Below are positions 867 through 16,870 of a stretch of DNA of 64,000 bases, one piece after another. The position numbers and the translations under genes were made by a program. How positions within the stretch are numbered: the stretch's first letter is position 1; each line of letters opens with the position of its first letter. Source of the DNA: Gammaproteobacteria bacterium (GTDB lineage Bacteria > Pseudomonadota > Gammaproteobacteria > SZUA-140); the NCBI GenBank assembly GCA_016716465.1, contig JADJWH010000007.1:143427-207426 (forward strand). Direction: 5' to 3'. Under the pieces are notes generated by a model, which made no database searches, was not told the DNA's origin, and saw only the letters and a program-made list of their open reading frames with translations.

Positions 867-1165
867 TTCTAAAGCGTGCGGGTTCGCTTTGTATCGATAA
901 GCGACAAGCCTCCTGCACGGAGGGAGTGCGTGCGGTAAGCCAAGGACTGGGCCAGATTTCTCTTCTGTCGACTCGCTTCCGAGCGGAAGAAGATCTTGAG
1001 CCTGTGGGTCTTCTCGATTGACATCCAGTCTCGTGCCGATCTGGATGCCTGGTTCCGGAACGGAAAGCACCGAATCTTCCCAGGATATCTTTTAATGACG
1101 CCCCGGCCTACTGGCTCATTTGTTGCTTTATTATGTCAAAACACAGCTTGTGACAGGTGGATATT

Positions 1166-1783
1166 ATGCGTGCTGAATGGGTAAGAGAGTCGCGCTACCG
1201 GAGAGTTGGCACATGGACGGTGGTGTTCCTGTGCGTGATGCTGGGTCTGGCAAGCCCCGGATTTACTCAGGAGCGGACGATAGTCGCCGGTGAGCTCAGC
1301 GGAGATTACCTGATCGGTCCGGATGATCTGTTGGACATAAGCGTATGGAAGGAAGATACGCTGCAACGCAAGGTTGTGGTGAGGCCGGATGGAAAGATCT
1401 CATTTCCATTGATAGGCGAGATTCCCGCCGCGGCCCGCCCCGCGGAGGAAATTCAGAAGGAAATAACGCAGCGGTTGAAGAAATATATCCCCGAGCCGGT
1501 AGTGACCGTGGTGGTTGAGAAAGTCGCCTCCTACAAAATATACGTGATTGGTGAAGTGAAGAACTCCGGTCAATACCAGGTGGGTCATTATCTGGACGTC
1601 GTTCAGGCCTTGGCGTTGGCGGGCGGATTGACCGCATATGCCGCCGAAAACAAGATAAGGATATTGCGTCGCGAGAATGGCGTCGAGATCGCCATTCCGT
1701 TCGAGTACGCCAAAGTAAAATCAGGGACCGATCTCAAGCAGAACATCATCCTGAGGCGTGGTGATGTGGTTGTTGTTCCCTGA
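1166..1783 (+). CDS. Polysaccharide export protein, Wza/EpsE-like (Poly_export + SLBB)
   Basis: Signal peptide (VVFLCVMLGLASPGF). Motifs typical of Wza N-terminal and SLBB domains (Y.IGPDDLL.ISVW, VRPDG.ISFPLIGEI, G.Y.V.HYLDVVQALALAGG). SD-like aggtgg lies 5 nt upstream of the ATG at 1166. Confidence 0.8.
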   Translation: MRAEWVRESRYRRVGTWTVVFLCVMLGLASPGFTQERTIVAGELSGDYLIGPDDLLDISVWKEDTLQRKVVVRPDGKISFPLIGEIPAAARPAEEIQKEITQRLKKYIPEPVVTVVVEKVASYKIYVIGEVKNSGQYQVGHYLDVVQALALAGGLTAYAAENKIRILRRENGVEIAIPFEYAKVKSGTDLKQNIILRRGDVVVVP

Positions 1784-1878
1784 TGCCGAATCGTATCTCA
1801 TGCGCGGGGGCGGCCTTGGCCATCTGAGTGGGGCTTATTCACGTGCCATCGGGTAGAAGGTTGATGTTTGGGGAGCGC

Positions 1879-3105
1879 ATGGGAGGTCGCGGTGGGAGTT
1901 TGACATGGCGGTGTGCCCGGATTGTCCTGGTTATACCGGTATTATTCATGTCATTTCCAATCCAGGCGGATCAGTGGGCGGTGACGCCATCAGTGCAGAT
2001 GCGGGCATCGCATGATGACAATATCAATTTGAGCGTCGATAACCCGATCTCAGTATGGGGCAGCTCCATATCGCCCCTCTTGGATTTAAGCAAGCGCAGT
2101 GCCGCCAGTTCGTACGGAATCGGTGGCAGGCTGATATTCAACCGCTATTCAGAGGAAAGCGTTCAGGACACGAATATCCAGTTATTGACGTTTTCAGGTC
2201 GTACCGCTACCCGGCTGAGCAGGTTTGGATTGTCCGGATCATATAAGCGTGACACCACGTTCGCGACGGTTACGGATACCTCCAGCGATGACGATGACGG
2301 GCAGCTAGCAGGTGATGTCGATGCCGGTCTGGTGCGGACTCAGGTGAGGCGCAATCGTCTTCTGCTGCGCCCAAGCTGGAGATATACCCTGTCTGAGGTT
2401 ATGTCGATCGATATGCGGTACATGTTCAATGACACTACGTATAGCGGAGACGGTAGCGAGGTGCTGACGGATTATCTTCGTCAGAGCGCCGAACTTACCG
2501 TGATCCGCAGGCTGTCCGAGCGGTCAAACATAACGGCTACTGCCGGCGCCGGACGATATACCACCTCCGGAGAAGGTACCGACACCGACGATTACAGCCT
2601 GAGCGCGGGATTCAGGCACGAATTCTCGCCGATGCTGACGATGCAGGTGGGCGTGGGGGTTCGGTCCGCCATATCAACCGTCGACAATTCGGACGTGGAA
2701 ACAACCGGGGCGTTGATAAATGCCAGTCTGAGCGGAAACCTCTCCGAGTTGACAACCTACCGCATAACCGCCAGCGAGAACTTTCAGCCGAGCGGTATCG
2801 GCTCGCTTGTGCTGAGTGACAGCCTGAGCTGGGACATGTCCCATGATCTTTCGCAGAAATTGTCCGTTTCACTCTGGGCAACCGCGTTCAGGAATCAATC
2901 CGTCGATTTCAACAGGGCCGCGTCGGACCGGACTCATTATGATGTCGAGCCGGGCTTTCGCTGGAAGCTGGGCAGGGAATGGAGCATGGACGGCTCCTAT
3001 CGTTACCGGTGGCAGAAGTATCGGGATGATGACGAGGCGGCAAGCAGCAACGCGATATATCTGGCCGTCAACTATGCCTGGCCGAGGATGGCGGTTTCGC
3101 GTTGA
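1879..3105 (+). CDS. Outer-membrane beta-barrel protein of the type associated with PEP-CTERM/EPS loci
   Basis: Signal peptide (ARIVLVIPVLFMSFPIQA). Alternating amphipathic strands and Y/R-rich repeats (SYRYRWQKY) along the length. Sits between the Wza-like and Wzz-like genes. ggggag SD lies before the ATG at 1879. Confidence 0.5.
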   Translation: MGGRGGSLTWRCARIVLVIPVLFMSFPIQADQWAVTPSVQMRASHDDNINLSVDNPISVWGSSISPLLDLSKRSAASSYGIGGRLIFNRYSEESVQDTNIQLLTFSGRTATRLSRFGLSGSYKRDTTFATVTDTSSDDDDGQLAGDVDAGLVRTQVRRNRLLLRPSWRYTLSEVMSIDMRYMFNDTTYSGDGSEVLTDYLRQSAELTVIRRLSERSNITATAGAGRYTTSGEGTDTDDYSLSAGFRHEFSPMLTMQVGVGVRSAISTVDNSDVETTGALINASLSGNLSELTTYRITASENFQPSGIGSLVLSDSLSWDMSHDLSQKLSVSLWATAFRNQSVDFNRAASDRTHYDVEPGFRWKLGREWSMDGSYRYRWQKYRDDDEAASSNAIYLAVNYAWPRMAVSR

Positions 3106-3189
3106 TGGAAATTAATGTTGTAGAATGGGCGGCACCTGGGCGGATTCTGGCTCGAGTATGCCCTAGTCCGTGTTTGGAGTAGTGTAATT

Positions 3190-4878
3190 ATGGAACGTTC
3201 AGGCCTCGATATTGGCGATTATGTGGATGTGCTGCGCAGGCGTAAGGCGCAGTTGCTCATCCCCATGCTGGCCGTGTTCGCGATCGCCGTTGCCATCGCC
3301 TTCGGCCTGCCGCCGGTATATCGTTCCACGGCGACTATCCTGATCGAACAGCAGGATATTCCGCAGGACCTCGTGCGGTCCACGGTCACGAGTTACGCGG
3401 CAGAGCGGATCCAGACGATCAGCCAGCGGGTGATGACGCGCGAGAATCTGTGGTCGATCGTCGAAAAGTACGATCTTTTCCCCGAGGAAAGACGTTCCGG
3501 GAATATCGATATCATCCTGCCGCACATACGGCAAAACATCGAAGTCGAAATGGTGAGCGCCGATATCGTCGATCCCAGAAGCGGCCGACAGAGCAAGGCT
3601 ACTATCGCCTTTGATCTTTCCTTTTATTACAGCGAAGCGACAGCCGCGAAAGAGGTGGTTGACGAATTGGTCTCGCTGTATCTGGAGGAGAACATACGAA
3701 TCCGGGAGCAGATGGCCTCGGAAACCTCCAGCTTCCTGTCCGAGGAAGCCAGCAGGCTGAGCGCTCATATCACCGAGCTGGAGGCCGTGCTGGCCAGCTT
3801 CAAGGAGAAGAATGTCGGCCAGATGCCGGAGCTGATGACGCTTAACATGAATCTGATCGAGCGTACTGAGCGGGAGCTGGAAGATACACGACGTGAAATA
3901 TCCTCCCTGGAGGAGCGCAAGGTCTTTCTCGAGTCTCAACTCGCGCAACTGGAACCCAATACCGGCGACAGCCCGGAGGGCCGGCTCAGATCCTTGCAGA
4001 TGCAGTTGTTGCGCGCCTCGTCGATCTACGCCCCCGATCACCCCGACATCGTCAATCTGCGGCGCGAGATCGAGGTGCTCAAGGCGCAGACGGGTAGCGG
4101 TACCAACAGAAAAGGTATCGAAGCGCAGATCTTGCAGCTCCAGTCCGAGCTGGCGTCGGCTCGTCAGAAATATTCCGATGATCACCCCGATATCATTGCG
4201 TTAAAGAAGTCTCTGGCGAACCTGAATGACGAGTTGAGGAACTCGACGTCGGGTGGTCTTATCTCGACAGACGGATTCCAGCCCGATAATCCGGCCTATG
4301 TCGCCACCAAGACCCAGCTCGAGGCGATAAAAATCGGCCTTAGAACGGCGCAGGAAAAGACGGATCGCTTGAAGGCCAAACTGGCTGAATACGAGGATCG
4401 CATCGTTCAGATGCCGCGCGTCGAGCAAGAGGGCGTCGCCATGCGCCGCGAATACGACAATGCGGTGCAGAAATACCATGAGATCAAGCAGAAATTGCTT
4501 GAGGCACAGGTCTCGGAACAGCTTGAAAAGGATCAGAAAGGCGAGCGGTTCTCGCTCATAGATCCTCCTATCATTCCAAGTGAGCCATACCAGCCGAATC
4601 GGATCGGGATCCTGTTGCTCGGAACCGTGTTGGCGATGGTAATTGGGCTCGGCGTCGCTTCGGTTGCCGAATATATGGATCAGACGGTGCGCGGCTCCCG
4701 CGGTGTCTCAGTTCTGCTCGGTTCTCCGCCGATAGCTACAATACCGTACTTCAAGGCCGATGGAGAGGAAGGACATCCCCAGCGCCGTATGCTGTTGGTC
4801 GGTACGATTATTCTTACCGTATTGATTCTTGGGGTTTTGGCCATAAAGGCTTTGTTCATGTCAGCGGATAATCTGTGA
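3190..4878 (+). CDS. Polysaccharide chain-length determinant (Wzz/Wzc N-terminal type, EpsF-like); no kinase domain in this ORF
   Basis: N-terminal TM (LLIPMLAVFAIAVAIAFGL). Long coiled-coil periplasmic region. C-terminal TM (IGILLLGTVLAMVIGLGVASV). Classic Wzz topology. Confidence 0.8.
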   Translation: MERSGLDIGDYVDVLRRRKAQLLIPMLAVFAIAVAIAFGLPPVYRSTATILIEQQDIPQDLVRSTVTSYAAERIQTISQRVMTRENLWSIVEKYDLFPEERRSGNIDIILPHIRQNIEVEMVSADIVDPRSGRQSKATIAFDLSFYYSEATAAKEVVDELVSLYLEENIRIREQMASETSSFLSEEASRLSAHITELEAVLASFKEKNVGQMPELMTLNMNLIERTERELEDTRREISSLEERKVFLESQLAQLEPNTGDSPEGRLRSLQMQLLRASSIYAPDHPDIVNLRREIEVLKAQTGSGTNRKGIEAQILQLQSELASARQKYSDDHPDIIALKKSLANLNDELRNSTSGGLISTDGFQPDNPAYVATKTQLEAIKIGLRTAQEKTDRLKAKLAEYEDRIVQMPRVEQEGVAMRREYDNAVQKYHEIKQKLLEAQVSEQLEKDQKGERFSLIDPPIIPSEPYQPNRIGILLLGTVLAMVIGLGVASVAEYMDQTVRGSRGVSVLLGSPPIATIPYFKADGEEGHPQRRMLLVGTIILTVLILGVLAIKALFMSADNL

Positions 4879-4954
4879 TCGAGACCATCATGATGGGAAA
4901 TTATTCTGTAAAATCATATGATTGTCAGCCCGGCATCCTGGCTTGCGTGGGTGG

Positions 4955-5755
4955 ATGATGTTCATGGACCGGATTACCAAGGCGGTTGAACGAACGCGGC
5001 AGGAAAAGGAAACGGCCCTCCAGCCAGGCGATGTCCTCATTGGCAATACACAGGACGCGAGCGAGATTTCCCGTATCGAGGTTTCGCAGGAGCTATTGCG
5101 CCAGAACCGTATTTTCCTAGGGAGTGAGGCTGGTGATTATGCCCATGCCTATAAAGTCCTGCGGACGCGCGTATGGCATCAGATGCGCACCAACGGCTGG
5201 CATAGCCTTGGAGTGACCAGTGCCAACCCCGGGGAAGGCAAAACGCTGACGGCAACCAATCTGGCAATAAGTCTGGCCAGGATGGAAATCGGCCGCAAGG
5301 TGGTCCTGGTCGATCTCGATATGCGGAGACCCAGTGTTCACAGGTACCTGGGGTTTCGTCCCGAATACGGGATCAGTGATTTCCTGCTCTCCGGTATGTC
5401 CCTCGGCAAGATACTAGTCGACATCGGAATCGAGAGATTCGCGGTATTGCCGGGTTGCGCCTCGTTTGCAAATTCATCCGAGATCCTGTCCTCGGGCAGG
5501 ATGGTGCAGCTGATGAATGAGATAAAGCGGTATTTCCCCTCGCGCGTGGTGATCTTTGACCTGCCCCCCATCCTCGCGGCGGACGATGTACTGGTCGTTG
5601 CTCCCCATATAAACGCCTTTCTGCTCGTGATCGAGGAAGGCAGGAGTCCCGCCAAAGACGTCGGCAAGGCGGCCGAATTGCTCAAGGATTCAAATATAGT
5701 CGGCACCGTGCTCAATAAGACCCCGGAAGCCGTTCAACAGTATTACGGTTACTGA
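4955..5755 (+). CDS. BY-kinase / ParA-MinD-like ATPase domain protein (EpsG-like tyrosine autokinase partner of the chain-length determinant)
   Basis: Walker A (SANPGEGKTLTATNLAIS), Walker A' (VVLVDLDMRRP) and Walker B (VVIFDLPP). In-frame start alternatives at 4922 (TTG), 4955, 4958 and 4964. Confidence 0.8.
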   Translation: MMFMDRITKAVERTRQEKETALQPGDVLIGNTQDASEISRIEVSQELLRQNRIFLGSEAGDYAHAYKVLRTRVWHQMRTNGWHSLGVTSANPGEGKTLTATNLAISLARMEIGRKVVLVDLDMRRPSVHRYLGFRPEYGISDFLLSGMSLGKILVDIGIERFAVLPGCASFANSSEILSSGRMVQLMNEIKRYFPSRVVIFDLPPILAADDVLVVAPHINAFLLVIEEGRSPAKDVGKAAELLKDSNIVGTVLNKTPEAVQQYYGY

Positions 5756-5772
5756 ACTGCCCGGCCAATTTT

Positions 5773-6678
5773 ATGTACGAATCGTTTTACAAACTGAGGG
5801 AAAAGCCTTTTTCCCTGTTGCCTGATCCGGGTTTCCTGTACATGAGCAGGAATCATCGCATGGCGTTGGCCATGCTGGAATATGGATTCATGAATCAGGC
5901 CGGATTTACGGTGATTACCGGAGAAATCGGCTCCGGCAAAACCACGCTGATCCGCCGCCTCATGGGTCAGATCGAGAATAACGAGAATTACAAGGTCGGG
6001 CTCGTTTCCAATACCCACCGCTCGTTCGGTGAATTGCTGCAGTGGATCCTGCTGGCCTTCAAGCTCGAATACCGAGGCAAGGAGAAGGTCGAGCTGTACC
6101 AGACATTGTCCGAGTTCCTTCTGCGCGAATATGACCTTGGGCACCGCACCATTCTGATCATCGACGAGGCGCAGAACCTTGATATCGAGTCGCTCGAACA
6201 GTTGCGCATGTTATCCAATATCAACGCGGGCAAGGACCAGATCCTGCAGTTGATGTTGATTGGCCAGCCCGGTCTGCGCGACATGCTCAGGCAGCCCGAG
6301 CTGGAACAGTTCGCGCAGCGTATCGCGGTGGATTTTCACCTGCGCCCTCTCGATATGCAATCGACAAGTGATTACATCCGGCACCGCCTGACGGTGGCGG
6401 GTGGAGATCCGGATCTCTTCGAGGCTGCCGCATGTGTCTCGGTTTATTACTATACGAGGGGAATACCCAGGCTCATTAACGTTCTGTGCGATACCGCCTT
6501 GATCTGTGGCTATGCCGATCAAAAATCCAGGATTGATGCCGATCTTATTCATGATGTGGTACGAGACAGGAGCGTAGGCGGGATCCTGCCGGTGTGGGAG
6601 GGCGACCAGGAAGAGCGCAGTGTGGTTCTCGATATCCACGCGGCGAAGAGCAAGAATCAGGGCGGCGGTGCTGAATAA
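5773..6678 (+). CDS. AAA ATPase, ExeA/GspA-like (EpsI-type ATPase of PEP-CTERM-type EPS loci)
   Basis: P-loop TGEIGSGKTTL and Walker B ILIIDEAQNL. Overall ExeA-like architecture of about 300 aa. Confidence 0.75.
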   Translation: MYESFYKLREKPFSLLPDPGFLYMSRNHRMALAMLEYGFMNQAGFTVITGEIGSGKTTLIRRLMGQIENNENYKVGLVSNTHRSFGELLQWILLAFKLEYRGKEKVELYQTLSEFLLREYDLGHRTILIIDEAQNLDIESLEQLRMLSNINAGKDQILQLMLIGQPGLRDMLRQPELEQFAQRIAVDFHLRPLDMQSTSDYIRHRLTVAGGDPDLFEAAACVSVYYYTRGIPRLINVLCDTALICGYADQKSRIDADLIHDVVRDRSVGGILPVWEGDQEERSVVLDIHAAKSKNQGGGAE

Positions 6679-6777: not shown

Positions 6778-7545
6778 ATGAAGGTCGTGATCTTGGCTGG
6801 AGGACTGGGTACCCGTATCAGCGAGGAGACACAGCTGAAGCCAAAGCCCATGGTGGAGATCGGTGGCAAACCGATCCTGTGGCATATCATGAAGATTTAC
6901 TCGAGTCATGGCATCCACGATTTCATCATCTGTTGTGGCTATAAGGGGTACGTGATCAAGGAATATTTCGCCAATTACGTACTGCACTCCTCCGATGTCA
7001 CCTTTGACCTGAAGAATAACCGCATGGAGATGCACCAGAATGGAACGGACCCATGGCGGGTGACCCTCGTGAACACGGGAGACAACTCGGGGACGGGTGG
7101 GCGTCTGCGACGGGTGCGGGCCTACATCGGTGATGAGGATTTTTGTTTCACCTACGGTGACGGTGTCAGTAACGTCGATATCACCCGCTTGATCGCCTTT
7201 CACAAGAGCCGGGGCAGGCTGGCGACCCTGACGACGGTACAACCCCCCCATCGGTTCGGTGCCCTGGATTTCGATCAGGATTCCGTTATCAAGAGTTTTG
7301 AGGAAAAGCCTCATGAAGGCGGATGGATCAATGGTGGATTCTTCGTGCTTTCGCCCAAGGCGATCGACTACATCGAACAGGATGAGGTGATGTGGGAGCG
7401 TGAACCCATGCAGCGCCTGACCCGCGAGGGTAATCTATCGGCCTACCGCCATGAGGGCTTCTGGTATTCGATGGATACCCAGCGCGACAAAAACCGTCTG
7501 GAAGAGCTGTGGAATACCGGCAAGGCTCCATGGAAGATCTGGTAA
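6778..7545 (+). CDS. rfbF: Glucose-1-phosphate cytidylyltransferase
   Basis: N-terminus [34 protein letters not shown] and length 255 aa are characteristic of RfbF/DdhA. Confidence 0.9.
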
Positions 7546-7549
7546 ATTT

Positions 7550-8749
7550 GTGATCAATACGGATTTTCTTGTAATCGGCGGAGGGGTCATTGGGGTCAAT
7601 ATCGCCCGCACCATGAAGCGCCGATATCCCGATTCCCGGGTTGTCGTGCTCGAGAAGGAGCCGGGCTGCGGTTTGCACGCCAGCGGACGCAATAGCGGAG
7701 TCCTGCACGCCGGGTTCTACTATAGCCCTGACAGCCTGAAGGCGCGCTTTACTCGCATGGGTAACATCGCTATGACTGAGTACTGTCGCGACAGAGGCAT
7801 CAGGATCAACGCCTGTGGAAAACTGGTCGTGGCGCGGGACGAGGAGGATCTGCCCCAGATGGACGAGCTCCTGAAAAGAGGGCGGGCCAATGGGGTGCCA
7901 CTGGACGAGCTCTCCGAGTCCGATGCCCGGTCCATTGAACCTCGAGTGAAGACCTGCGGCAGGGCGTTGTATTCCCCCACCACGGCGTCCGTGGACCCAA
8001 CGGAAGTCATGCGCCGGATGGCCGAGGATGCCGCGCAAGAGGGGGTCGAGATACATACGGGGGTCGGCTATCTGAAGGCGGAAAACGGATCCGTCATGAC
8101 GTCCGCGGGCCGCTACGGCGCGGGTTATGTCATCAACGCCGCCGGGCTCTACGCGGATAAGGTCGCGAAAGATTTCGGCTTCTCCCAGCACTACAGCATC
8201 CTGCCCTTCAAGGGGCTATACCTCTATTCGGATGAACCCAGGGGTTCGATTCGCACCAATATCTACCCTGTCCCGGACCTGAGAAACCCATTTCTGGGCG
8301 TCCACTATACGTTGACGGTAAACAACGACGTGAAAATCGGGCCGACCGCCATCCCGGTGCTTTGGCGCGAGCAGTATCAAGGTCTGGAGAATTTCAGTTC
8401 GCGGGAATTTTTCGAGATCGTCTACCGTCAATTGGGGCTGTTCGCGCGCTCTAATTTCGATTTCAAGAAGCTCGCCATGGAGGAGATCAGGAAATATTCT
8501 CGCTCCCGGATGGTCGAACTCGCTTCTGTCCTTGTAGAAGGCGTCGACTCCGGCCGATACAGGCGGTGGGCCAAGCCCGGCATCCGGGCCCAGCTCCTGG
8601 ACCACAGGACAAAAAAACTGGAGATGGACTTCGTGATCGAGGGCGATGCGAAGTCACTGCATGTCCTCAACGCCGTGTCGCCGGCGTTTACCTGTTCCAT
8701 TCCGTTTTCGGAACATGTATGTAACGAGATTGATAGATTATTGCATTGA
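7550..8749 (+). CDS. FAD-dependent oxidoreductase (DAO / L-2-hydroxyglutarate-oxidase-like family)
   Basis: Rossmann FAD motif VIGGGVIGVNIA followed by LEKE.G.G.HASGRNSGV.HAG. The ORF track starts at 7451, but that stretch overlaps rfbF in another frame. GTG 7550 immediately after the rfbF stop is the likely start. Confidence 0.7.
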   Translation: MINTDFLVIGGGVIGVNIARTMKRRYPDSRVVVLEKEPGCGLHASGRNSGVLHAGFYYSPDSLKARFTRMGNIAMTEYCRDRGIRINACGKLVVARDEEDLPQMDELLKRGRANGVPLDELSESDARSIEPRVKTCGRALYSPTTASVDPTEVMRRMAEDAAQEGVEIHTGVGYLKAENGSVMTSAGRYGAGYVINAAGLYADKVAKDFGFSQHYSILPFKGLYLYSDEPRGSIRTNIYPVPDLRNPFLGVHYTLTVNNDVKIGPTAIPVLWREQYQGLENFSSREFFEIVYRQLGLFARSNFDFKKLAMEEIRKYSRSRMVELASVLVEGVDSGRYRRWAKPGIRAQLLDHRTKKLEMDFVIEGDAKSLHVLNAVSPAFTCSIPFSEHVCNEIDRLLH

Positions 8750-8765
8750 GCGGGTTGGAAATAAC

Positions 8766-9809
8766 ATGAATATCTTGATTACCGGAAATATGGGTTACGT
8801 GGGTCCCGTCGTCGTGAAACAGCTCAGATCGAGCTATCCGAAGGCGAGGCTGATTGGACTGGACATGGGCTATTTCGCCCATTGCCTCACGGCGGCGGAT
8901 ACCTTGCCGGAGTGCGACCTCGATGTTCAGTACTTCATGGATGTGCGGGACGTCGGGGTAGAGATGTTGTCCGGGGTCGATGCCATCGTACACCTGGCCG
9001 CGATCTCGAATGATCCCATGGGGAATGCCTTTGAGGAGGTTACCCTGGAGATCAATCACCGGGCCACCGTCGCGCTGGCGGAAAAGGCCAGGAAGGCCGG
9101 TGTCCGGCGCTTCGTTTTTGCTTCCAGCTGCAGCGTCTACGGGTTCGCCGAGGGCGGAGCGAGGGCCGAGGACGCGGAGTTGAATCCGCTGACCGCTTAC
9201 GCGAAATCCAAGGTCTACTCTGAGAAAGACCTGCAAGAGCTTGCCAGCGAGTCATTCATCGTAACCAGCCTGCGCTTTGCCACGGCCTGCGGTATGAGCC
9301 AGAGGCTGAGACTGGACCTCGTCCTGAATGATTTCGTGGCAAACGCGGTCGCGGCGAAGAAGATCGTGATTCTGAGCGACGGCACCCCCTGGCGTCCGCT
9401 GATCACGGTGCAGGATATGGCGCGCGCGATCGACTGGGCCGCGACCCGGCCGGTTGACAATGGCGGCGGTTTCATTGCGCTCAATGTCGGCAGCAATGTC
9501 TGGAACTACCAGGTCAGGGCCCTCGCCGAGGCGGTTGCGCGCGAGATTCCCGGGGTTGAAGTGACCATCAACAAGGATGCCGCCCCCGACAAGCGCTCAT
9601 ATCAGGTCAATTTCGACCTGTTTTCCAGGCTGGCGTCCGCTTATCAGCCCCAGGTTGATCTGCGCGGGGCGATTACGGGGCTGAAGGAAGGTCTGACGGC
9701 AATGCATTTCAAGGATGCCAATTTCAGGCAGTCGTCCTTCATGCGGCTGAAGGTGCTGCAGGAGCACCTCGATCGCGGCAGATTGACCAGGCAGCTGCGC
9801 TGGTCGTGA
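8766..9809 (+). CDS. NAD-dependent epimerase/dehydratase (extended SDR family) acting on a nucleotide sugar
   Basis: ILITGNMGYVGPVVVKQL glycine-rich NAD motif. Catalytic YAKSK (YxxxK). ATG at 8766. Confidence 0.8.
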   Translation: MNILITGNMGYVGPVVVKQLRSSYPKARLIGLDMGYFAHCLTAADTLPECDLDVQYFMDVRDVGVEMLSGVDAIVHLAAISNDPMGNAFEEVTLEINHRATVALAEKARKAGVRRFVFASSCSVYGFAEGGARAEDAELNPLTAYAKSKVYSEKDLQELASESFIVTSLRFATACGMSQRLRLDLVLNDFVANAVAAKKIVILSDGTPWRPLITVQDMARAIDWAATRPVDNGGGFIALNVGSNVWNYQVRALAEAVAREIPGVEVTINKDAAPDKRSYQVNFDLFSRLASAYQPQVDLRGAITGLKEGLTAMHFKDANFRQSSFMRLKVLQEHLDRGRLTRQLRWS

Positions 9810-9832
9810 CAACAAAGAGAGCAGGGTAACCT

Positions 9833-11074
9833 ATGTCTAGCGCAAACTTGTCGTGCCGCTTCTGTGGAGCAGGCCTGCGGCGCACATTCGCCGATCTCGG
9901 CATGTCGCCGGTGGCGAATTCCTATGTCAAACCCGACGCGTTGCATTGCATGGAGCCGTTCTATCCCCTTCATGCCTATGTGTGCGAGTCATGTTTTCTG
10001 GTTCAGCTCGAGGAATTCCAGAGCCCGTCGGAGATCTTCGGCGACTATGCCTATTTTTCCTCCTATTCAGAGAGCTGGCTGAAGCACGCCAGGGATTACT
10101 CGCTGGAGACCATGAAGCGCTTTGGTATTGATGCGAAATGGCAGGTGGTGGAAATCGCGAGCAATGACGGTTACCTGTTGAGGAATTTCAAGGAGGCCGG
10201 CGTCCCGGTGCTGGGTATAGAGCCGGCGGAGAACGTGGCCATGGTCGCGCAGCAGGCGGGCATACCCGCGGTCGTGAAATTCTTTGGCACCCGGACCGCA
10301 TCCGAGCTTGTCGATCAGGGTACCCGCGCGGATCTTCTGATCGGCAACAATGTATTGGCGCACGTCCCTGATCTGAACGATTTCGTCGGCGGGCTCAAGA
10401 TCCTGCTCAGTCCGCGCGGTGTCATCACGATGGAATTCCCGCATCTGCTTCGGCTGATGAAGGAGAATCAGTTCGATACCATTTACCATGAGCATTTTTC
10501 CTATTTCTCTTTCATTACGGTCGAGAAGGTCTTTGCCAAACATGGCCTGACCATTTTTGATGTCAAGGAACTGCCGACTCACGGAGGTTCGCTCAGGATC
10601 TATGCGTGCCATGATGCCGGTTCCGGGCATTTAGTGGGGGAGAGCGTAACTAAACTCAGGGCCGAAGAATTGCGCCAGGGATTTGACCAGCCTGGCACTT
10701 ACAGCAGCTTCAGCGAGCAGGTCAAGGAAACCAAGCGGAAACTTCTGGAATTTTTGATCGAGGCCAAGCGTGACGGTAAATCGGTCGTCGGTTATGGCGC
10801 CCCTGCCAAGGGGAACACGCTGTTGAATTATTGCGGGATCCGTTCCGATTTCATCGATTATACGGTTGACCTCAGCCCGCACAAGCAGGGGCTTTATCTG
10901 CCGGGAACACGCGTGCCGATTCACGCGCCTGACAAGATCAGGGAGACCCGCCCCGACTATGTCCTGATTCTGCCCTGGAATCTGAAGGACGAGATCATGA
11001 AGCAGATGCAGCACATACGCGAGTGGGGTGGAAAATTCGTCGTGCCGATTCCGGAGGTGAAGGTTTATCCATGA
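9833..11074 (+). CDS. SAM-dependent sugar C-methyltransferase family protein (N-terminal Cys4 zinc ribbon + class I methyltransferase + C-terminal C-MT domain)
   Basis: CRFCG..(x28)..CESC zinc ribbon. Methyltransferase motif I VVEIASNDGYLL. C-terminal domain typical of TylC3/NovU-type nucleotide-sugar C-methyltransferases. Confidence 0.7.
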   Translation: MSSANLSCRFCGAGLRRTFADLGMSPVANSYVKPDALHCMEPFYPLHAYVCESCFLVQLEEFQSPSEIFGDYAYFSSYSESWLKHARDYSLETMKRFGIDAKWQVVEIASNDGYLLRNFKEAGVPVLGIEPAENVAMVAQQAGIPAVVKFFGTRTASELVDQGTRADLLIGNNVLAHVPDLNDFVGGLKILLSPRGVITMEFPHLLRLMKENQFDTIYHEHFSYFSFITVEKVFAKHGLTIFDVKELPTHGGSLRIYACHDAGSGHLVGESVTKLRAEELRQGFDQPGTYSSFSEQVKETKRKLLEFLIEAKRDGKSVVGYGAPAKGNTLLNYCGIRSDFIDYTVDLSPHKQGLYLPGTRVPIHAPDKIRETRPDYVLILPWNLKDEIMKQMQHIREWGGKFVVPIPEVKVYP

Positions 11075-11616
11075 TATTCCGTGAGACGGAACTCGCTGGC
11101 GCCTTCATCATCGAGCCGGAGAAGATCGAGGATGACAGAGGATTTTTTGCGCGTAGCTGGTGCCGCAGGGAGTTTGGAGAGCATGGTCTAGAGACCGGCC
11201 TTGAGCAATGCAATATATCGTTCAACAAGATGAAGGGTACTCTTCGGGGGATGCATTATCAGATAGCCCCCCATGAAGAGGTGAAACTGGTCAGATGTAC
11301 ACGCGGGTCGATTTTCGATGTGATAATCGATCTGCGGCCTTCGTCCTCTACCTATGGGCGCCATTTCGGGCTTGTGCTTTCGGAGGATGAGAGAAACATG
11401 CTGTATATACCGGGTGGATTCGCGCACGGTTTTCAGACGCTGGTGGATTCGACGGAAGTGTTTTATCAGATGACCGAGTCATACCATCCGGAATCGGCGC
11501 GCGGCGTGCGATGGGATGATGCGGGATTTGATATCGAATGGCCACCTGCGGCGCCACGGTTGATTTCCGAGCGCGACAGAACCTGGCCTGACTTTACAGG
11601 TCATTCAGGGCGTTGA
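11071..11616 (+). CDS. Cupin-fold sugar nucleotide 3,5-epimerase (RmlC family)
   Basis: Motifs DDRGFF, RGMHYQ, KLVRC..G.IFDV.IDLR, YIP.GFAHGF. The ATGA start/stop overlap with the upstream gene suggests translational coupling. Confidence 0.8.
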   Translation: MIFRETELAGAFIIEPEKIEDDRGFFARSWCRREFGEHGLETGLEQCNISFNKMKGTLRGMHYQIAPHEEVKLVRCTRGSIFDVIIDLRPSSSTYGRHFGLVLSEDERNMLYIPGGFAHGFQTLVDSTEVFYQMTESYHPESARGVRWDDAGFDIEWPPAAPRLISERDRTWPDFTGHSGR

Positions 11617-11639
11617 TACAAAGCGAGAGTTCTATCACG

Positions 11640-12479
11640 ATGGCTAAGGAACAATCCGATAATATTCCCGTTCTGATCATCAAGCCGGACAGCGGCTGGA
11701 AGATGATCGACCTCGGCGAGATCATCAGGTACCGCGACCTGGCGTATAACCTGGTGTGGCGCGATATCACGGTTCAGCATGCCCAGACCGTCCTCGGGTT
11801 CATTTGGGCGATCATAACGCCGCTGGTCCAGATACTTATCTTCTCGATAATCTTCGGCAAGGTGGCCAAGATCAGCACGGACGGGATACCGTATACGCTG
11901 TTTACGACCGTTGCGATCATCCCGTGGACATATATGTCCACGGTCATGCTTCAGTCCAGTCAAAGCCTGATTTCGAACCATAACATGCTGGGTAAGATTT
12001 ACTTCCCGCGTCTGCTCTATCCGTTAACACCGGTCATTTCGAAAATGTTGAATTTCGGGATATCGCTGTTGCTACTGTTGGCGATCATGGTGTACTACAA
12101 GGTCGCGCCCACCTGGCAGTTGCTCTATTTGCCCCTATTCATCCTGATGATGATGATGGTTCCGGCGGGTATCGGCATGTGGATGTCCGCGATGGCGATA
12201 CGTTACCGCGACATAAAATTCATCATGCACTATGTTGTCCAGATGCTCATGTACAGCGCTCCGATCGTATATTCGGCGGCATCGATCCCGGAGAATTACC
12301 GGTTTGTATATTCATTGAATCCCATTGTGGGAGTGATCGAGGGGTATAGAGCCTGTCTCCTCGGCGCCGATATGCCCTGGCAATTCATACTGCCCGGCAT
12401 GTTCACGGCCGTTCTACTGTTCGTTGGGGGCGCCTTTTACTTCAAGCGTATCGAGCGGATATTTGTCGATGTTATGTAA
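11640..12479 (+). CDS. wzm: ABC-2 type polysaccharide export permease
   Basis: Six predicted TM helices, about 280 aa, ABC-2 signature region, directly upstream of the ATPase. Confidence 0.8.
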   Translation: MAKEQSDNIPVLIIKPDSGWKMIDLGEIIRYRDLAYNLVWRDITVQHAQTVLGFIWAIITPLVQILIFSIIFGKVAKISTDGIPYTLFTTVAIIPWTYMSTVMLQSSQSLISNHNMLGKIYFPRLLYPLTPVISKMLNFGISLLLLLAIMVYYKVAPTWQLLYLPLFILMMMMVPAGIGMWMSAMAIRYRDIKFIMHYVVQMLMYSAPIVYSAASIPENYRFVYSLNPIVGVIEGYRACLLGADMPWQFILPGMFTAVLLFVGGAFYFKRIERIFVDVM

Positions 12480-12509
12480 TGTATTCCGCTGCAGCAGAGT
12501 TGACACATC

Positions 12510-13871
12510 ATGCCTATGAACTCAGAAGAGATCGCTATCAGGGTCGAGAAAGTCGCCAAGCGGTTCCGTCTTGGCCTGGAAGACGCCATGCACGATACCT
12601 TCGGGGCGGCCATGCTCGATTTCATCAAAAGCCCCCTCAAGAACTATCGATACTATCGTTCGCTTCATAAATTCGACGACTCCGCCGGCCCGGACGATCC
12701 GTCGAGCGAGCCGTCGGATATCCTGTGGGCGCTCAGAAGCGTTTCATTCGAGGTCAAACGCGGGGAGGTCCTGGGGATAATCGGCACCAACGGCGCTGGC
12801 AAATCCACCCTGCTCAAAATCCTGTCGCGAATCACCCCGCCCACACGCGGCTCGATCGAAATCAGAGGCCGGGTATCCAGCCTGCTCGAGGTCGGCACCG
12901 GTTTCCATAATGAGCTGACGGGCAGGGAAAATATCTATCTCAATGGCACCGTTCTGGGGATGAGAAAGAAGGAAATTGACCGGAAATTCGATGAAATCGT
13001 CGAGTTCTCCGGCGTCGAGCGTTTCCTTGATACTCCGGTGAAGCGCTATTCCAGCGGCATGCGCGTCCGCCTGGCTTTTTCGGTGGCAGCCCATCTGGAG
13101 CCCGAGATCCTGATCATTGATGAGGTGCTGGCGGTGGGTGACGCGGCATTTCAGAAGAAATGCATGAACAAGATGCAGGATGTCGGCGAAGGCGGCCGCA
13201 CGGTTCTCTTCGTCTCCCACAGCATGCCCGCGATCACCCGATTGTGCCATCGAGCGATACTGCTGAATCAGGGTACCGTGCTGAAGGATGGTTTGACGCA
13301 TGACGTGGTGAGCGCCTATCTGGGATCTGGCCAGGGATCGCCATCACACAAACAATGGGACGATCCGGGCACGGCACCCGCAGGTAAAGTGGCGCGGTTG
13401 CTTGCCGTGCGAGCCCTGGATGCCGACCGCAAAATATCGAGCGCGATGAAGATTACTCAGCCGATCGCGATCGAGATTGAATTTGAGGTGATCGAGCCGG
13501 GATATATCCTGATGCCACATTTTCATGTCTTCAATGACGAAGGCGTGCGCCTGTTCGCGGCCTTGGACCAGGATCCGCAGTGGCGCGGAAAACAGCGCCC
13601 GAAAGGCCGCTATATTTGCCGTGGCTGGATTCCGGCGAACCTGCTGTCTGAGGGCTTGCTGTATGTGTCTCCCGCGCTAACGACACTGCAACCGGATATA
13701 CCGCAATTCATTGCCCGGGACGCCATCTCGTTCCAGGTAATGGACAGCCGGCATGAAGGCGCGGAGTCGGCGCGAGGGGACTATGCGAGGAATATCAAAG
13801 GGGTCATCAGACCGATGTTGAGCTGGGAGTCCGAAATCGTGGAGATACCAGGGCGGCGCTCAACCGCTTGA
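12510..13871 (+). CDS. wzt: ABC transporter ATP-binding protein with C-terminal polysaccharide-terminus-binding domain
   Basis: Walker A GTNGAGKST, signature YSSGMRVRL, Walker B ILIIDEV. About 190-aa C-terminal extension consistent with the Wzt_C beta-sandwich. Confidence 0.85.
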   Translation: MPMNSEEIAIRVEKVAKRFRLGLEDAMHDTFGAAMLDFIKSPLKNYRYYRSLHKFDDSAGPDDPSSEPSDILWALRSVSFEVKRGEVLGIIGTNGAGKSTLLKILSRITPPTRGSIEIRGRVSSLLEVGTGFHNELTGRENIYLNGTVLGMRKKEIDRKFDEIVEFSGVERFLDTPVKRYSSGMRVRLAFSVAAHLEPEILIIDEVLAVGDAAFQKKCMNKMQDVGEGGRTVLFVSHSMPAITRLCHRAILLNQGTVLKDGLTHDVVSAYLGSGQGSPSHKQWDDPGTAPAGKVARLLAVRALDADRKISSAMKITQPIAIEIEFEVIEPGYILMPHFHVFNDEGVRLFAALDQDPQWRGKQRPKGRYICRGWIPANLLSEGLLYVSPALTTLQPDIPQFIARDAISFQVMDSRHEGAESARGDYARNIKGVIRPMLSWESEIVEIPGRRSTA

Positions 13872-13928
13872 GTGTGCCGGCCGCGGGGCCGCGCTGCCGG
13901 CAGAATCGGCAATGCAGGATCGAATGAT

Positions 13929-15233
13929 ATGGACGATATGGACTTCTCTGCCAATGTGCCCTCCGTGGGCGATGACATGTACGGACTTGTCCGGCAATTG
14001 TTCCCGATTTGTCGCAGCATCACCGGTGACGGCGTGCGGGAGACACTCGCTCTCCTGAGAGAGCGGCTTTCGATCGAGATCCACGAAGTCGAAACCGGGA
14101 CGCAGGTATTCGACTGGACGATTCCGAAGGAATGGAACATCCGCGATGCCTACATCATGGATTCCCGCGGCCGGAAGGTGATCGACTTCCGGGACAACAA
14201 TCTGCATGTGTTGAATTACAGTACGCCGATACGTGCGCGGGTATCGAATGAGGAATTGAAGAAACACCTGTACACCCTTCCCGACCGGCCGGACTGGATT
14301 CCCTACCGCACCTCGTATTACAGCGAAAACTGGGGGTTTTGCGTCAGCCATAATCAATTCCTGAGCCTGACGGAACCGGAATACGAGGTTGTGATCGATT
14401 CCGATCTGAAGGCCGGTCATATGACCTATGGCGAGTACTACAAGCCGGGAGAGTCCACGGAGGAGGTACTGTTCTCCTGCCATGTGTGCCATCCCTCGCT
14501 CTGTAACGACAATCTTTCCGGGATAGCTCTCGCCGCGCAACTTGCACGCTGGCTGTCCGGTAGAACTACGAGATACTCCTACCGATTTCTCTTTATCCCC
14601 GGTACGATAGGGTCGATTGCCTGGCTGAGCCTGAACGAAGCCATGGTCGGGCGCATCAAGCACGGACTGGTGGTGGTCTGCGTCGGCGACGACGGTGACT
14701 TCACGTATAAGAAAAGCCGCCAGGCGGATAGCGAGATCGATCGAATCGTTTTGAATATACTGAAAAATTCGGGTAAGCCCTACAAGGTGATTGATTTCTA
14801 TCCCTATGGATATGACGAGCGTCAGTACTGTTCGCCCGGGTTCAATCTCGCCGTCGGCAGTCTGTCCAGAACGACCCATGGCGAATACCCTGAATACCAT
14901 ACCTCGGCGGATAATCTGTCATTTGTCAAACCAGTCAATCTGGCCGATTCCTTTGACAAGTATTGCCAGATCGTCGATGCGCTGGAAAACAATTACACCT
15001 ACCGCAATCTCAGTCCGAAATGTGAGCCCCAACTCGGGAAGAGAGGTCTATACGGCGGTATCGGGGCGGAGGACAAAAAGCCCGTGAAGACCATGACCCT
15101 CTTATGGGTCCTCAACCTGTCTGACGGCAAACACAGTCTGCTGGATATCTCGGAACGATCCGGCGTGCCGTTCGATGAGGTCGCCGCCGCTGCCGCTGCG
15201 CTGGCGGGTGCTGGGCTGTTGGCCAAGGTATGA
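13929..15233 (+). CDS. DUF4910 / M28-aminopeptidase-like domain protein associated with polysaccharide loci
   Basis: M28-like metal-ligand motifs (CHVCHPS, YHTSADN). Architecture recalls the DUF2172/DUF4910 proteins found beside wzm/wzt. In-frame GTG 13872 is an alternative start. Confidence 0.45.
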   Translation: MDDMDFSANVPSVGDDMYGLVRQLFPICRSITGDGVRETLALLRERLSIEIHEVETGTQVFDWTIPKEWNIRDAYIMDSRGRKVIDFRDNNLHVLNYSTPIRARVSNEELKKHLYTLPDRPDWIPYRTSYYSENWGFCVSHNQFLSLTEPEYEVVIDSDLKAGHMTYGEYYKPGESTEEVLFSCHVCHPSLCNDNLSGIALAAQLARWLSGRTTRYSYRFLFIPGTIGSIAWLSLNEAMVGRIKHGLVVVCVGDDGDFTYKKSRQADSEIDRIVLNILKNSGKPYKVIDFYPYGYDERQYCSPGFNLAVGSLSRTTHGEYPEYHTSADNLSFVKPVNLADSFDKYCQIVDALENNYTYRNLSPKCEPQLGKRGLYGGIGAEDKKPVKTMTLLWVLNLSDGKHSLLDISERSGVPFDEVAAAAAALAGAGLLAKV

Positions 15234-15967
15234 TGGGCCCGCTTTCGGGAAAGACCGCGGTCATCACCGGTGCCACCGGCGGCATCGGCAGGAGTGTTGC
15301 GCTGGCGCTGGCTCGGGAAGGCGTCAATCTGTGCCTGCTCGGTCGCGAGCGGGCTCGATGTGAGGGTCTCCTCGCGCAAGTGGCGACCGGGCATCCTGGG
15401 CTGCGTACCGCCTTTCAGGCGGTGGATCTTGCGGACGTTACCGGTGTGCGGCGTGCCTGCGAGAGCCTTCTGCGCGATCAGCCTGCTATCGATCTGTTGG
15501 TCCACTGCGCCGGCCTGATCGTTCCGGCCGAGTATGCGAGCGCGAAGACTGAGGATTTCGATGCGCAGTATTTCATCAACGTTCGGGCGCCATTCCTGCT
15601 GACCCAGGGGCTGCTCTCCGCGATCCGTGCCCGGAAGGGGCAGGTGGTATTCGTGAACTCAAGTGCGGCCCAGCAGAAGGCGAGGGGCGGTATGGCAGCC
15701 TACGCCGCCAGTAAATATGCCTTGACGGCGCTGGCCGACAGCCTGCGGGATGAGGTCAATGCGGATGGGGTGCGGGTCATCAGCGTCTACCCCGGCCGTA
15801 CCGCGACGGCCATGCAGGAGCAACTCCATGAGCGGGAGGGCAAGCCTTACCGGTCGAATGTTCTGCTGCAACCGGACGATGTCGCGGAGGCGATTCTTCA
15901 CGCCCTTATGGCCCCCCTCACCGCCGAGATCACCGATATCTCGATTCGCCCCTTTCAGAAGGGTTGA
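15230..15967 (+). CDS. Classical short-chain dehydrogenase/reductase
   Basis: TGATGGIG cofactor motif. NSSAA...YAASK catalytic tetrad region. ATGA overlap with the upstream gene. Confidence 0.8.
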   Translation: MMGPLSGKTAVITGATGGIGRSVALALAREGVNLCLLGRERARCEGLLAQVATGHPGLRTAFQAVDLADVTGVRRACESLLRDQPAIDLLVHCAGLIVPAEYASAKTEDFDAQYFINVRAPFLLTQGLLSAIRARKGQVVFVNSSAAQQKARGGMAAYAASKYALTALADSLRDEVNADGVRVISVYPGRTATAMQEQLHEREGKPYRSNVLLQPDDVAEAILHALMAPLTAEITDISIRPFQKG

Positions 15968-16060: not shown

Positions 16061-16870
16061 GTGAAGCCCAGTAATCTGCTCGGGATTCTCGGCCATGCCG
16101 CGCCGGATTTTTTCATCATCGGGGTCCAGAAAGGCGGCACCACTTCGCTCTACAATTATCTCGCCCGTCATCCAGCGGTGCTTCCGGCGGTGGAAAAGGA
16201 GATTCACTATTTCAGTGAAAATTTCTATAGAGGCGAAGCGTGGTACAGCAAGCGCTTTCCGACCCGATACCACAAGCTGCGCCGCATGCTGGAGTTGCAT
16301 ACGCGTATCCTGACCGGAGAGGCAACCCCGTATTACATCTTCCATCCCCATGCCGCCCGACGGATCAGGGCGCGTCATCCACGCGCCAGGATCATCCTCA
16401 TGCTGCGCAATCCCGTCGATCGCGCCTATTCGCACTATCGTTATCACGTCAAGCTGGGTGTCGAGTCGCTGAGTTTCGAGGAGGCGATAGCCGCGGAGCC
16501 ACAGCGGCTGGCCGGGGAAATGGAGCGGATGATGGCCGATGAGTACTACTCCAGCGAAGCGTGCAAACTGTTTTCTTACCTGAGGCGCGGGATCTATGTC
16601 GACCAGATCCGGCGCTGGCGCGAATATTTTCCTCGCGAGCAGATGCTGGTCCTGAAAAGCGAGGATTTTTTTGCCAACCCGGCGGAGTCTTATCTGCAGG
16701 TCACCCGGTTTCTGGGCCTGGAGCACCATGATCTTAGCGCTTATGACACGTTCAATGCGGGCGCTGAATCGGCCCTGCGGTCTGACACACGGCAGGGGCT
16801 CGTGGAATATTTCCGGGCGAGTAACGAGCAGCTCTACGACTATCTGGGAGTCGATTTCGGCTGGAATTGA
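16061..16870 (+). CDS. Sulfotransferase (Sulfotransfer_1, heparan-sulfate-sulfotransferase-like PAPS-binding motifs)
   Basis: 5'-PSB loop IIGVQKGGTTSL, very similar to the animal HS sulfotransferase motif IIGV(R/K)KGGTRAL. 3'-PB motif RNPVDRAYSHY. GTG start. Confidence 0.8.
   Translation: MKPSNLLGILGHAAPDFFIIGVQKGGTTSLYNYLARHPAVLPAVEKEIHYFSENFYRGEAWYSKRFPTRYHKLRRMLELHTRILTGEATPYYIFHPHAARRIRARHPRARIILMLRNPVDRAYSHYRYHVKLGVESLSFEEAIAAEPQRLAGEMERMMADEYYSSEACKLFSYLRRGIYVDQIRRWREYFPREQMLVLKSEDFFANPAESYLQVTRFLGLEHHDLSAYDTFNAGAESALRSDTRQGLVEYFRASNEQLYDYLGVDFGWN

Follow-up and report, generated by a model that had tools for sequence, protein, structure and literature searches.

Which sugar is made by the CDP-sugar operon at positions 6778-11616 of the 64-kb stretch of gammaproteobacterial DNA analysed here (the window), and what might an FAD-dependent oxidoreductase contribute to its synthesis? 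An earlier note on this DNA had described a five-gene operon for a C-methyl-branched deoxyhexose, in which the FAD enzyme may replace a canonical reductase step. All five genes are present on the + strand at these coordinates, and the comparisons set out below suggest, with a confidence about evenly balanced by doubt, that the operon supplies an exported surface glycan with a CDP-linked, C-methyl-branched hexose and that the 4-keto intermediate of this pathway arises by dehydrogenation instead of 4,6-dehydration. A C-methyl hexose retaining its 6-hydroxyl group is a more likely product than a deoxyhexose. Here and in the following, all chemistry that goes past family assignment is inferred.

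The cassette runs past 11616 to 15967, the further genes lying on the same strand with gaps of at most 30 nt, and comprises the following features:

6778..7545, + strand: rfbF, glucose-1-phosphate cytidylyltransferase, product CDP-D-glucose (TIGR02623, PF00483)
7550..8749, + strand: predicted FAD-dependent L-2-hydroxyglutarate oxidase/dehydrogenase, LhgO/L2HGDH family (NF008726, PF01266)
8766..9809, + strand: extended short-chain dehydrogenase/reductase (SDR), putative sister family of Cj1427 (PF01370)
9833..11074, + strand: zinc-ribbon S-adenosylmethionine (SAM)-dependent sugar C-methyltransferase, TylC3/TcaB9/MtmC family (PF08421, PF13489, PF08484)
11071..11616, + strand: RmlC-family cupin epimerase (TIGR01221, PF00908)
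11640..12479, + strand: Wzm-type ABC-2 permease, polysaccharide export (PF01061; closest NCBIfam models Wzm/RfbD and KpsM)
12510..13871, + strand: Wzt-type ABC ATPase (PF00005; closest NCBIfam models Wzt/TagH)
13872..15233, + strand: DUF4910/DUF2172/HTH_47 metallopeptidase-like protein (PF16254 at 5e-115)
15230..15967, + strand: classical SDR, adh_short (PF00106 at 4.7e-42), overlapping the DUF4910 gene by 4 nt

The longest open reading frames (ORFs) of the FAD gene and of the extended SDR gene run into their upstream neighbours. Because of the lengths of homologues and the positions of the Pfam matches, the true starts are likely GTG 7550 for the former (399 aa) and ATG 8766 for the latter (347 aa); homologues of the FAD protein measure 398-399 aa, the same length as the GTG 7550 product. 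For the DUF4910 gene, the true start is probably ATG 13929. The ATG of rfbF is preceded by a ribosome-binding site (AGGAG), and the ATG of RmlC at 11071 falls within the TGA stop of the methyltransferase gene, an ATGA overlap (11071-11074) that bears out the translational coupling proposed for these two genes. Promoter and terminator scans gave no more matches than in shuffled sequence.

The extended SDR and its closest relatives

That CDP-glucose is the entry to the pathway, as had been proposed, is supported by RfbF, which matches the TIGR02623 equivalog with 442 bits (cut-off 300), residues 1-255 lying on model positions 1-255. With respect to the following step, 4,6-dehydratases such as DesIV and RmlB have an acid/base pair Asp-Glu directly after the catalytic Ser/Thr. 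In the extended SDR of the window (PF01370 at 4.9e-40), S121-C122-S123 aligns to T-D-E of DesIV, that is, Cys and Ser occupy the positions of the dehydratase acid/base pair (PDB entry 1r6d is a D/E double mutant), and these three residues as well as Y145 and K149 are invariant in 25 members of the SDR family from several phyla. Amongst the 18 NCBIfam matches of the SDR at E <= 0.001 there is none to TIGR02622 (CDP-glucose 4,6-dehydratase); the best, GalE, reaches 78 bits (cut-off 262), and every model scores under its threshold. The missing TIGR02622 match and the Cys-Ser at the acid/base positions therefore indicate that the SDR, as judged from its sequence, is not a CDP-glucose 4,6-dehydratase.

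Nor does another gene offer itself for this reaction. No second extended SDR was found in the 64-kb window, neither by Pfam scan nor by tblastn with the SDR family, DesIV, Cj1427 and the second SDR of related loci, the same scans returning only the SDR at 8766 and the adh_short gene. Likewise, no dehydratase family occurs amongst the frequent neighbours in 81 related loci (80 best genome matches and five contigs for three close homologues, minus four duplicates), where neighbours were clustered from same-strand ORFs within ~9 kb and detailed counts were taken from the 48 loci with full flanks. The deoxyhexose proposed by the earlier note is thus not supported, a CDP-glucose 4,6-dehydratase being absent from the operon, the window and these frequent neighbours.

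A single-sequence search of the PDB with the SDR instead returned Cj1427 at 1.7e-18, and a profile of the SDR family had Cj1427 (6vo6) as its first match over the full length (1e-27, 100 bits), the next structure reaching 74 bits; 8rdg, with 74 bits in this search, is a Pyrococcus UDP-galactose 4-epimerase. The identity of 6VO6 and 6VO8 as Cj1427 of Campylobacter jejuni was confirmed. Cj1427 has Asn-Ser at the dehydratase Asp-Glu positions, and shares with the window SDR the Ser at the Glu position as well as the motifs RxRLDLxxNDF and PDKRxYxV, each of which has at least 95% conservation in either family and does not occur in DesIV. Cj1427 follows a ping-pong mechanism in which C4 of GDP-heptose is oxidised and the tightly bound NADH is re-oxidised by alpha-ketoglutarate, yielding L-2-hydroxyglutarate; in C. 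jejuni, the RmlC-type epimerase Cj1430 and then a separate NADPH-dependent reductase, Cj1428, act after it (PMC10680097).

As a model for the SDR, a CDP-tyvelose or CDP-glucose 2-epimerase was rejected. No structure of this kind is amongst the PDB matches of the SDR, and an epimerase without release of a keto sugar could feed neither RmlC nor the C-methyltransferase. As these two partners need a 4-keto sugar and the SDR is the only universal candidate for making it, the SDR would have to release a 4-keto CDP-hexose.

When compared with the GDP-heptose pathway of C. jejuni (PMC10680097; 6VO6/6VO8), the operon has in common an extended SDR that lacks the dehydratase residues and whose nearest relative of known structure is Cj1427; in both, an RmlC-type cupin epimerase and a separate reductase come after it. 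The transfer of hydride to 2-oxoglutarate, giving L-2-hydroxyglutarate, is documented for Cj1427 and would apply here by analogy. The two systems differ in the substrate, which is GDP-heptose there and CDP-glucose here, in the C-methyltransferase that is inserted ahead of the epimerase in the window, and in that the C. jejuni capsule locus as described has no gene for an L-2-hydroxyglutarate dehydrogenase, whereas the window operon has a dedicated one.

The FAD enzyme and the cassette in other genomes

The FAD protein matches PF01266 at 1.9e-51, and its best and passing NCBIfam model is that of L-2-hydroxyglutarate oxidase (NF008726, 326.6 bits, cut-off 299). The closest PDB structure, 8w75, is the Drosophila L2HGDH (2.3e-48), in which 2-oxoglutarate is contacted by Ser88, His92, Tyr289, Leu299, His302 and Arg393, while glycerol-3-phosphate oxidase retains only part of these six contacts (PMC10726252). 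After correction for a 40-residue offset in the PDB chain, the window protein has all six (motifs NSGVLHAG, NIYPVP, FLGVH and GIRAQ), and the same holds for 43 of 43 cassette-linked FAD homologues. On the evidence of its sequence, the assignment of the FAD protein as an L-2-hydroxyglutarate oxidase/dehydrogenase is therefore well supported.

The SDR family has more than 8000 database matches, its relatives being encoded in 524 genome stretches (scan with one genome per species), and the SDR shows 63-70% identity across Nitrospirota, anammox planctomycetes, Gammaproteobacteria, Desulfobacterota and Bacteroidota. Cultured organisms with a relative of the SDR are Thermithiobacillus tepidarius DSM 3134, Xanthocytophaga flavus and Splendidivirga corallicola. 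Two types of cassette can be distinguished. Type A, as in the window, has the order rfbF-(LhgO)-SDR-C-methyltransferase-RmlC-DUF4910 and a variable reductase-like gene, while type B has rfbF-(LhgO)-SDR-RmlC followed by a DRL_cat/SAF NAD(P) oxidoreductase. In the loci with full flanks, the genes that accompany the SDR occur as follows:

rfbF: 46/48 loci
RmlC: 46/48 loci, the core rfbF-SDR-RmlC being found in 46/48
C-methyltransferase: 38/48 loci
DUF4910: 34/48 loci
LhgO-like gene: 30/48 loci
DRL oxidoreductase: 9/48 loci, 8 of these 9 without methyltransferase

An LhgO-like gene lies between rfbF and the SDR, with gaps of 4-16 nt, in 43 of the 81 loci, which span all five of the above groups. 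Its presence is independent of the methyltransferase (24/30 versus 14/18 loci, p = 1, Fisher's exact test), and types A and B both have it, so that its link is to the SDR step. Amongst the 43 FAD proteins of the cassettes, three lineages can be told apart, with a mutual identity of ~30%. The first is that of the window (322-327 bits against NF008726), the second is shorter (363-382 aa) and stays under the cut-off of this model (250-279 bits), and the third is the canonical LhgO, found in Xanthocytophaga (561 bits). In addition, a search that started from Cj1427 itself, and that is hence an independent test of the link, returned a Cj1427 homologue in a metagenome-assembled genome (MAG) of the Bacillota (67% identical) with an LhgO-family gene two genes upstream (331.7 bits) that has the same six residues. 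Four independent recruitments of LhgO beside two sister families of SDRs would be hard to explain unless these SDRs yield L-2-hydroxyglutarate. Judging from this gene adjacency in four lineages, the FAD enzyme most likely recycles the co-substrate of the SDR and does not replace a reductase. The replacement once suggested for it agrees poorly with a complete L-2-hydroxyglutarate site and with a gene that tracks the SDR and not the methyltransferase, both of which fit recycling.

There is precedent for such an arrangement in CsiD-LhgO of Escherichia coli and Pseudomonas putida, where an L-2-hydroxyglutarate oxidase is encoded beside an enzyme producing its substrate (PMC6265302, PMC5974017). 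Here, too, the oxidase gene adjoins that of the proposed producer and the active site is conserved. However, the producer is a glutarate hydroxylase there and a proposed nucleotide-sugar dehydrogenase here, and 2-oxoglutarate would be a recycled redox carrier in the window, not a catabolic intermediate. No publication linking LhgO with nucleotide-sugar enzymes was found in a literature search that was incomplete and did not cover the primary papers on Cj1427.

The cassette is common in genomes, and the rarity of C-methyl CDP-sugar pathways assumed by the earlier note therefore does not hold at the level of genes, though no C-methyl sugar made by this cassette has been characterised. CDP-vinelose of Azotobacter is an example of a CDP-deoxyhexose. 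Furthermore, Sinorhizobium meliloti has a cluster SMb21416-21418 that consists of ddhA, ddhB and an NDP-hexose 3-C-methyltransferase gene (PMC4053727). Such CDP-deoxyhexose operons (rfbF/ddhA and rfbG/ddhB) share with the window the entry via RfbF and a C-methyltransferase acting on a CDP-sugar, but employ a canonical dehydratase (TIGR02622), the place of which is taken here by the Cj1427-like SDR and LhgO. No publication describing the cassette was found, the coverage of the literature search being incomplete.

Further variants accompany the cassette in related loci. Type B loci (L023:5630-6931; also L028, L032, L034, L042, L048, L071, L072, L074 and L077) lack both the methyltransferase and DUF4910, and the oxidoreductase that follows RmlC in them has 433 aa with NAD_binding_3, DRL_cat and SAF domains. 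This suggests a pathway from CDP-glucose to a CDP-L-hexose by oxidation, epimerisation and reduction, with an unusual reductase. Commonly downstream is a second, divergent nucleotidyltransferase-like protein of 278 aa that matches RmlA at only 3e-08 (L039:139-975; cluster C8, 26 loci), and 13 related loci have a second extended SDR (cluster C9; L040:15719-16672) that scores dehydratase-like with 119 bits against a cut-off of 365. As a dehydratase of the cassette, the latter was rejected in view of its weak score, its position outside the core, its absence from the window and its frequent company of the second nucleotidyltransferase. Its place is probably in another sugar pathway, and perhaps it forms, together with that nucleotidyltransferase, a separate NDP-sugar pathway within the same glycan locus. 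In Nitrospira loci, genes for a PhyH-like dioxygenase and a class IV aminotransferase recur, and the MAG of Ca. Kuenenia hertensis (L040) carries a type A cassette.

Two contexts of the Cj1427 clade itself are also of interest. At L089:6001-8726, the genes directly after an SDR with 65% identity to Cj1427 encode a split transketolase (N and C), a further SDR, an aldo-keto reductase and O-methyltransferases of the TylF type. This set may constitute a route from a 4-keto intermediate to a two-carbon-branched sugar. At L088:3089-6936, a Cj1427-clade SDR is accompanied by a GHMP kinase, a nucleotidyltransferase and, transcribed divergently, a C-methyltransferase (PF08421/PF08484), so that C4-dehydrogenase and C-methyltransferase are paired outside CDP-glucose cassettes as well.

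The proposed pathway and its alternatives

The assignment of the fourth gene to the SAM-dependent sugar C-methyltransferases of the TylC3 type stands. Its domains score 84.6 bits (PF08421, 5.4e-24), 49.4 bits (PF13489) and 232.9 bits (PF08484, 2.1e-69), and in the PDB it matches MtmC (4rv9) at 2.8e-89 and KijD1 and TcaB9 at about 1e-70 (5t64 at 1.2e-71, 3ndi at 1.6e-69). The four zinc-ribbon Cys (CRFC...CESC) have aligned counterparts in MtmC, KijD1 and TcaB9, and in an alignment with 3ndi (2-residue offset) the equivalents of the TcaB9 active-site residues Tyr76, His181, Tyr222, Glu224 and His225 are all kept, with the motif IYHEHFSY. A placement outside the C-type enzymes, which would have undone the earlier proposal, is hence disfavoured by homology and by the conserved residues. 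As every solved relative is a 3-C enzyme, methylation would likely take place at C3, with C5 as the alternative.

The epimerase passes the TIGR01221 cut-off (183.4 bits against 155.75), matches PF00908 at 3.9e-64 and finds RmlC structures in the PDB at 1e-43 to 1e-34. It thus belongs to the RmlC-family 3,5-epimerases, as had been stated, and is coupled to the methyltransferase. It is proposed to act on the 4-keto sugar at C5, and at C3 if this is unmethylated; that its substrate is CDP-linked is suggested by the operon context.

The DUF4910 protein is extremely conserved and aligns over residues 27-450 with CA_C2195 of Clostridium acetobutylicum (3K9T, E = 4.2e-159; roughly 60% identity by reading of the alignment). 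This family lacks the peptidase catalytic residues, is encoded amongst sugar-modifying genes and has been proposed to act in modified-carbohydrate biosynthesis (Das et al. 2014, PMC4000134). In the loci with full flanks, 33 of the 34 with DUF4910 also carry the methyltransferase, and the DUF4910 protein is accordingly regarded as a partner of the C-methyltransferase, a tight pairing that is new. The published CA_C2195 neighbourhoods resemble the present ones in their nucleotidyltransferase, epimerase/dehydratase and methylase genes and in their occurrence in Nitrospirae, Planctomycetes and other phyla; however, neither this cassette nor the pairing with the PF08421/PF08484 methyltransferase nor the link to LhgO was defined there (PMC4000134).

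A candidate for the C4-ketoreductase of the last step might be the adh_short protein (15230-15967), homologues of which are found in 12 of the 38 methyltransferase-containing loci. For export, a Wzm homologue is present in 35 of the 81 loci. The Wzt protein of the window has 453 aa, and the ~180 residues past its ABC domain have no Pfam match; they may form a domain binding the glycan terminus, as homologues in related loci show a weak match to PF14524 (Wzt_C). One may speculate that the unusual sugar is a chain-terminating cap read by this domain.

Taken in order, RfbF would convert glucose-1-phosphate and CTP to CDP-D-glucose, a step supported at the family level. The SDR would then oxidise C4 with its bound NAD+ and release CDP-4-keto-D-glucose, the NADH being re-oxidised by 2-oxoglutarate to give L-2-hydroxyglutarate, a reaction suggested by its closest characterised relative, by the missing dehydratase residues and by the need of its partners for a free 4-keto sugar. 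The FAD enzyme, for which the substrate is well supported, would return L-2-hydroxyglutarate to 2-oxoglutarate and pass the electrons to quinone or O2, so that 2-oxoglutarate would be catalytic and the oxidation would be pulled forward. The C-methyltransferase would place a methyl group on the carbon beside the keto group, likely C3, with the DUF4910 protein acting alongside it, and RmlC would epimerise C5. The 4-hydroxyl group might be restored by the adh_short protein or by the SDR's own NADH, and Wzm/Wzt would export the finished glycan.

The chemistry of the modifying steps has a parallel in antibiotic biosynthesis. In the TDP-L-mycarose-type branch, a 3-C-methyltransferase (TylC3 or MtmC) is followed by a 5-epimerase and then by a 4-ketoreductase. 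The methyltransferase belongs to the same family in both systems, and in both a 4-keto sugar would be C-methylated, epimerised by an RmlC-like enzyme and reduced at C4. The carrier, on the other hand, is dTDP there and CDP here; the window has no 4,6- or 2,3-dehydratase, the sugar therefore probably not being deoxygenated; and an antibiotic cluster stands against a Gram-negative surface-polysaccharide locus.

Several observations weigh against the dehydrogenation pathway as outlined. The SDR is only ~25% identical to Cj1427, and in a fold search with its AlphaFold2 (AF2) model (predicted local distance difference test, pLDDT, 84.6) MoeE5, Cj1427, TunA and many 4-epimerases score alike, the family profile having told more than the fold; for both reasons, the SDR is more appropriately considered a sister family of Cj1427 than a member of it, and use of 2-oxoglutarate is not a property that can be read from its sequence. 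A linked LhgO gene is missing from 38 of the 81 loci, including 18 of the 48 that have full flanks, and from three of four independent Cj1427-clade contexts, the LhgO partner thus being dispensable or encoded elsewhere. No obvious reductase was seen in 16 of the 38 methyltransferase-containing loci. The loci are, moreover, phylogenetically non-independent, their counts and Fisher tests overstating significance and being indicative only. Finally, the S-layer O-glycan of Kuenenia stuttgartiensis contains a 174-Da residue that was read as a 'dimethylated deoxyhexose' (PMC5088730), and if the cassette makes this residue, its product is a 6-deoxy sugar.

This last point, together with the cassette in the Kuenenia MAG, also speaks for the SDR being a non-canonical CDP-glucose 4,6-dehydratase after all, with a vinelose-type C-methyl 6-deoxyhexose as product and the FAD enzyme serving another redox step. 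The order rfbF, SDR, C-methyltransferase and epimerase does resemble classical deoxysugar operons, and DesIV and other 4,6-dehydratases are amongst the PDB matches of the SDR. Against this stand the lack of a TIGR02622 match or of any model over its cut-off, the invariant Cys-Ser at the acid/base positions and an FAD site that is of the L2HGDH type and not that of a sugar oxidoreductase. A dehydratase is, in addition, internally redox-neutral and gives no reason for four separate recruitments of LhgO. This explanation is accordingly considered unlikely.

Similarly unlikely, and perhaps slightly more so, is a redox-neutral shuttle, in which the SDR oxidises CDP-glucose and lets go of the keto sugar for methylation and epimerisation, the same bound NADH then reduces the modified keto sugar, and 2-oxoglutarate and LhgO only rescue enzyme left trapped with NADH by the escape of an intermediate. 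The 16 methyltransferase loci in which no separate reductase is recognisable would be accounted for, the absence of LhgO from 38 of the 81 loci is as expected of an accessory function, and Cj1427 does bind NADH very tightly (PMC10680097). However, most loci have a candidate reductase (adh_short, the second extended SDR or the DRL/SAF oxidoreductase), the search for neighbours covered same-strand ORFs within ~9 kb only, and in C. jejuni it is the separate NADPH-dependent Cj1428 that carries out this step (PMC10680097).

It is very improbable that the FAD enzyme oxidises the sugar or a glycan substituent, leaving the SDR as a final 4-ketoreductase or plain epimerase. DAO-family enzymes do act on many alpha-hydroxy and amino substrates, and the lineage of 363-382 aa falls below the LhgO cut-off, but the six L2HGDH residues, including His302 and the Arg that binds the C5-carboxylate, are present in every lineage. 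In addition, the loci devoid of the FAD gene keep rfbF-SDR-RmlC, so that the keto sugar must come from the SDR. Least credible of all is a housekeeping LhgO gene placed here by chance, for although LhgO has roles elsewhere, e.g. in the catabolism of glutarate (csiD-lhgO; PMC6265302, PMC8206213), 43 of 81 loci across five groups have it in one and the same place, between rfbF and the SDR, in three lineages, with a fourth beside the Cj1427 homologue.

The surrounding glycan locus and what the cassette may mean

The cassette is embedded in a locus that looks like one for a sulfated exopolysaccharide and its remodelling enzymes. Its neighbours in the window are the following:

15-6678, + strand, directly upstream: PEP-CTERM/EpsH-type exopolysaccharide genes (Bac_transf, Poly_export/SLBB, BBP2_2 beta-barrel, Wzz/GNVR chain-length protein, ParA-like tyrosine-kinase-type ATPase, AAA_22 ATPase)
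16061-16870, 20845-21789, 38841-39845 and 46738-47751, + strand: four sulfotransferase genes, the first beginning 93 nt after the cassette end at 15967
16894-20694, 29567-33801, 36052-38154, 43598-46324 and 60362-62890: FG-GAP/ASPIC and CBM6 proteins
22243-29373, - strand: 2376-aa protein with sulfatase, three CBM6/CBM35, Ig-like and GDSL lipase domains
50664-52016: 450-aa protein with no Pfam match
55718-57232: asparagine-synthase-like gene

The PEP-CTERM/EpsH-type arrangement is also seen in loci of Gammaproteobacteria and Nitrospirota (clusters c14, c17, c19 and c31; L002). Between about 46000 and 60000, where the last two of the above genes reside together with five GT4 glycosyltransferases, the G + C content falls from ~61% to 42-47%, and this region is probably an island of glycosyltransferases, either hypervariable or gained by horizontal transfer.

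What would be new in the cassette is Cj1427-type chemistry on CDP-glucose, joined to a C-methyltransferase and to a dedicated enzyme for the recycling of L-2-hydroxyglutarate. More generally, and more tentatively than for the operon itself, a 2-oxoglutarate-dependent nucleotide-sugar C4-dehydrogenase and an L-2-hydroxyglutarate dehydrogenase might form a redox module that moves hydride from a sugar nucleotide to the quinone pool via catalytic amounts of the 2-oxoglutarate/L-2-hydroxyglutarate couple. Such a module would supply free 4-keto hexoses that are not deoxygenated, and would feed undescribed CDP-linked C-methyl hexoses (type A) or L-hexoses (type B) into the surface glycans of Nitrospira, anammox bacteria, sulfur-oxidising Gammaproteobacteria and others.

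For dehydrogenases of the Cj1427 type, the physiological oxidant so far rests on in-vitro work with one Campylobacter enzyme, and the repeated recruitment of LhgO into the same operons would, if true, be genomic evidence that the 2-oxoglutarate/L-2-hydroxyglutarate couple is used in cells. L-2-hydroxyglutarate, usually seen as a damage or catabolic metabolite, would then gain a biosynthetic role, a route to 4-keto hexoses retaining the 6-hydroxyl group would be at hand, and the DUF4910/CA_C2195 family gains a specific partner in the C-methyltransferase. The cassette points to an uncharacterised branched sugar on hard-to-culture nitrite oxidisers, anammox bacteria and sulfur oxidisers.

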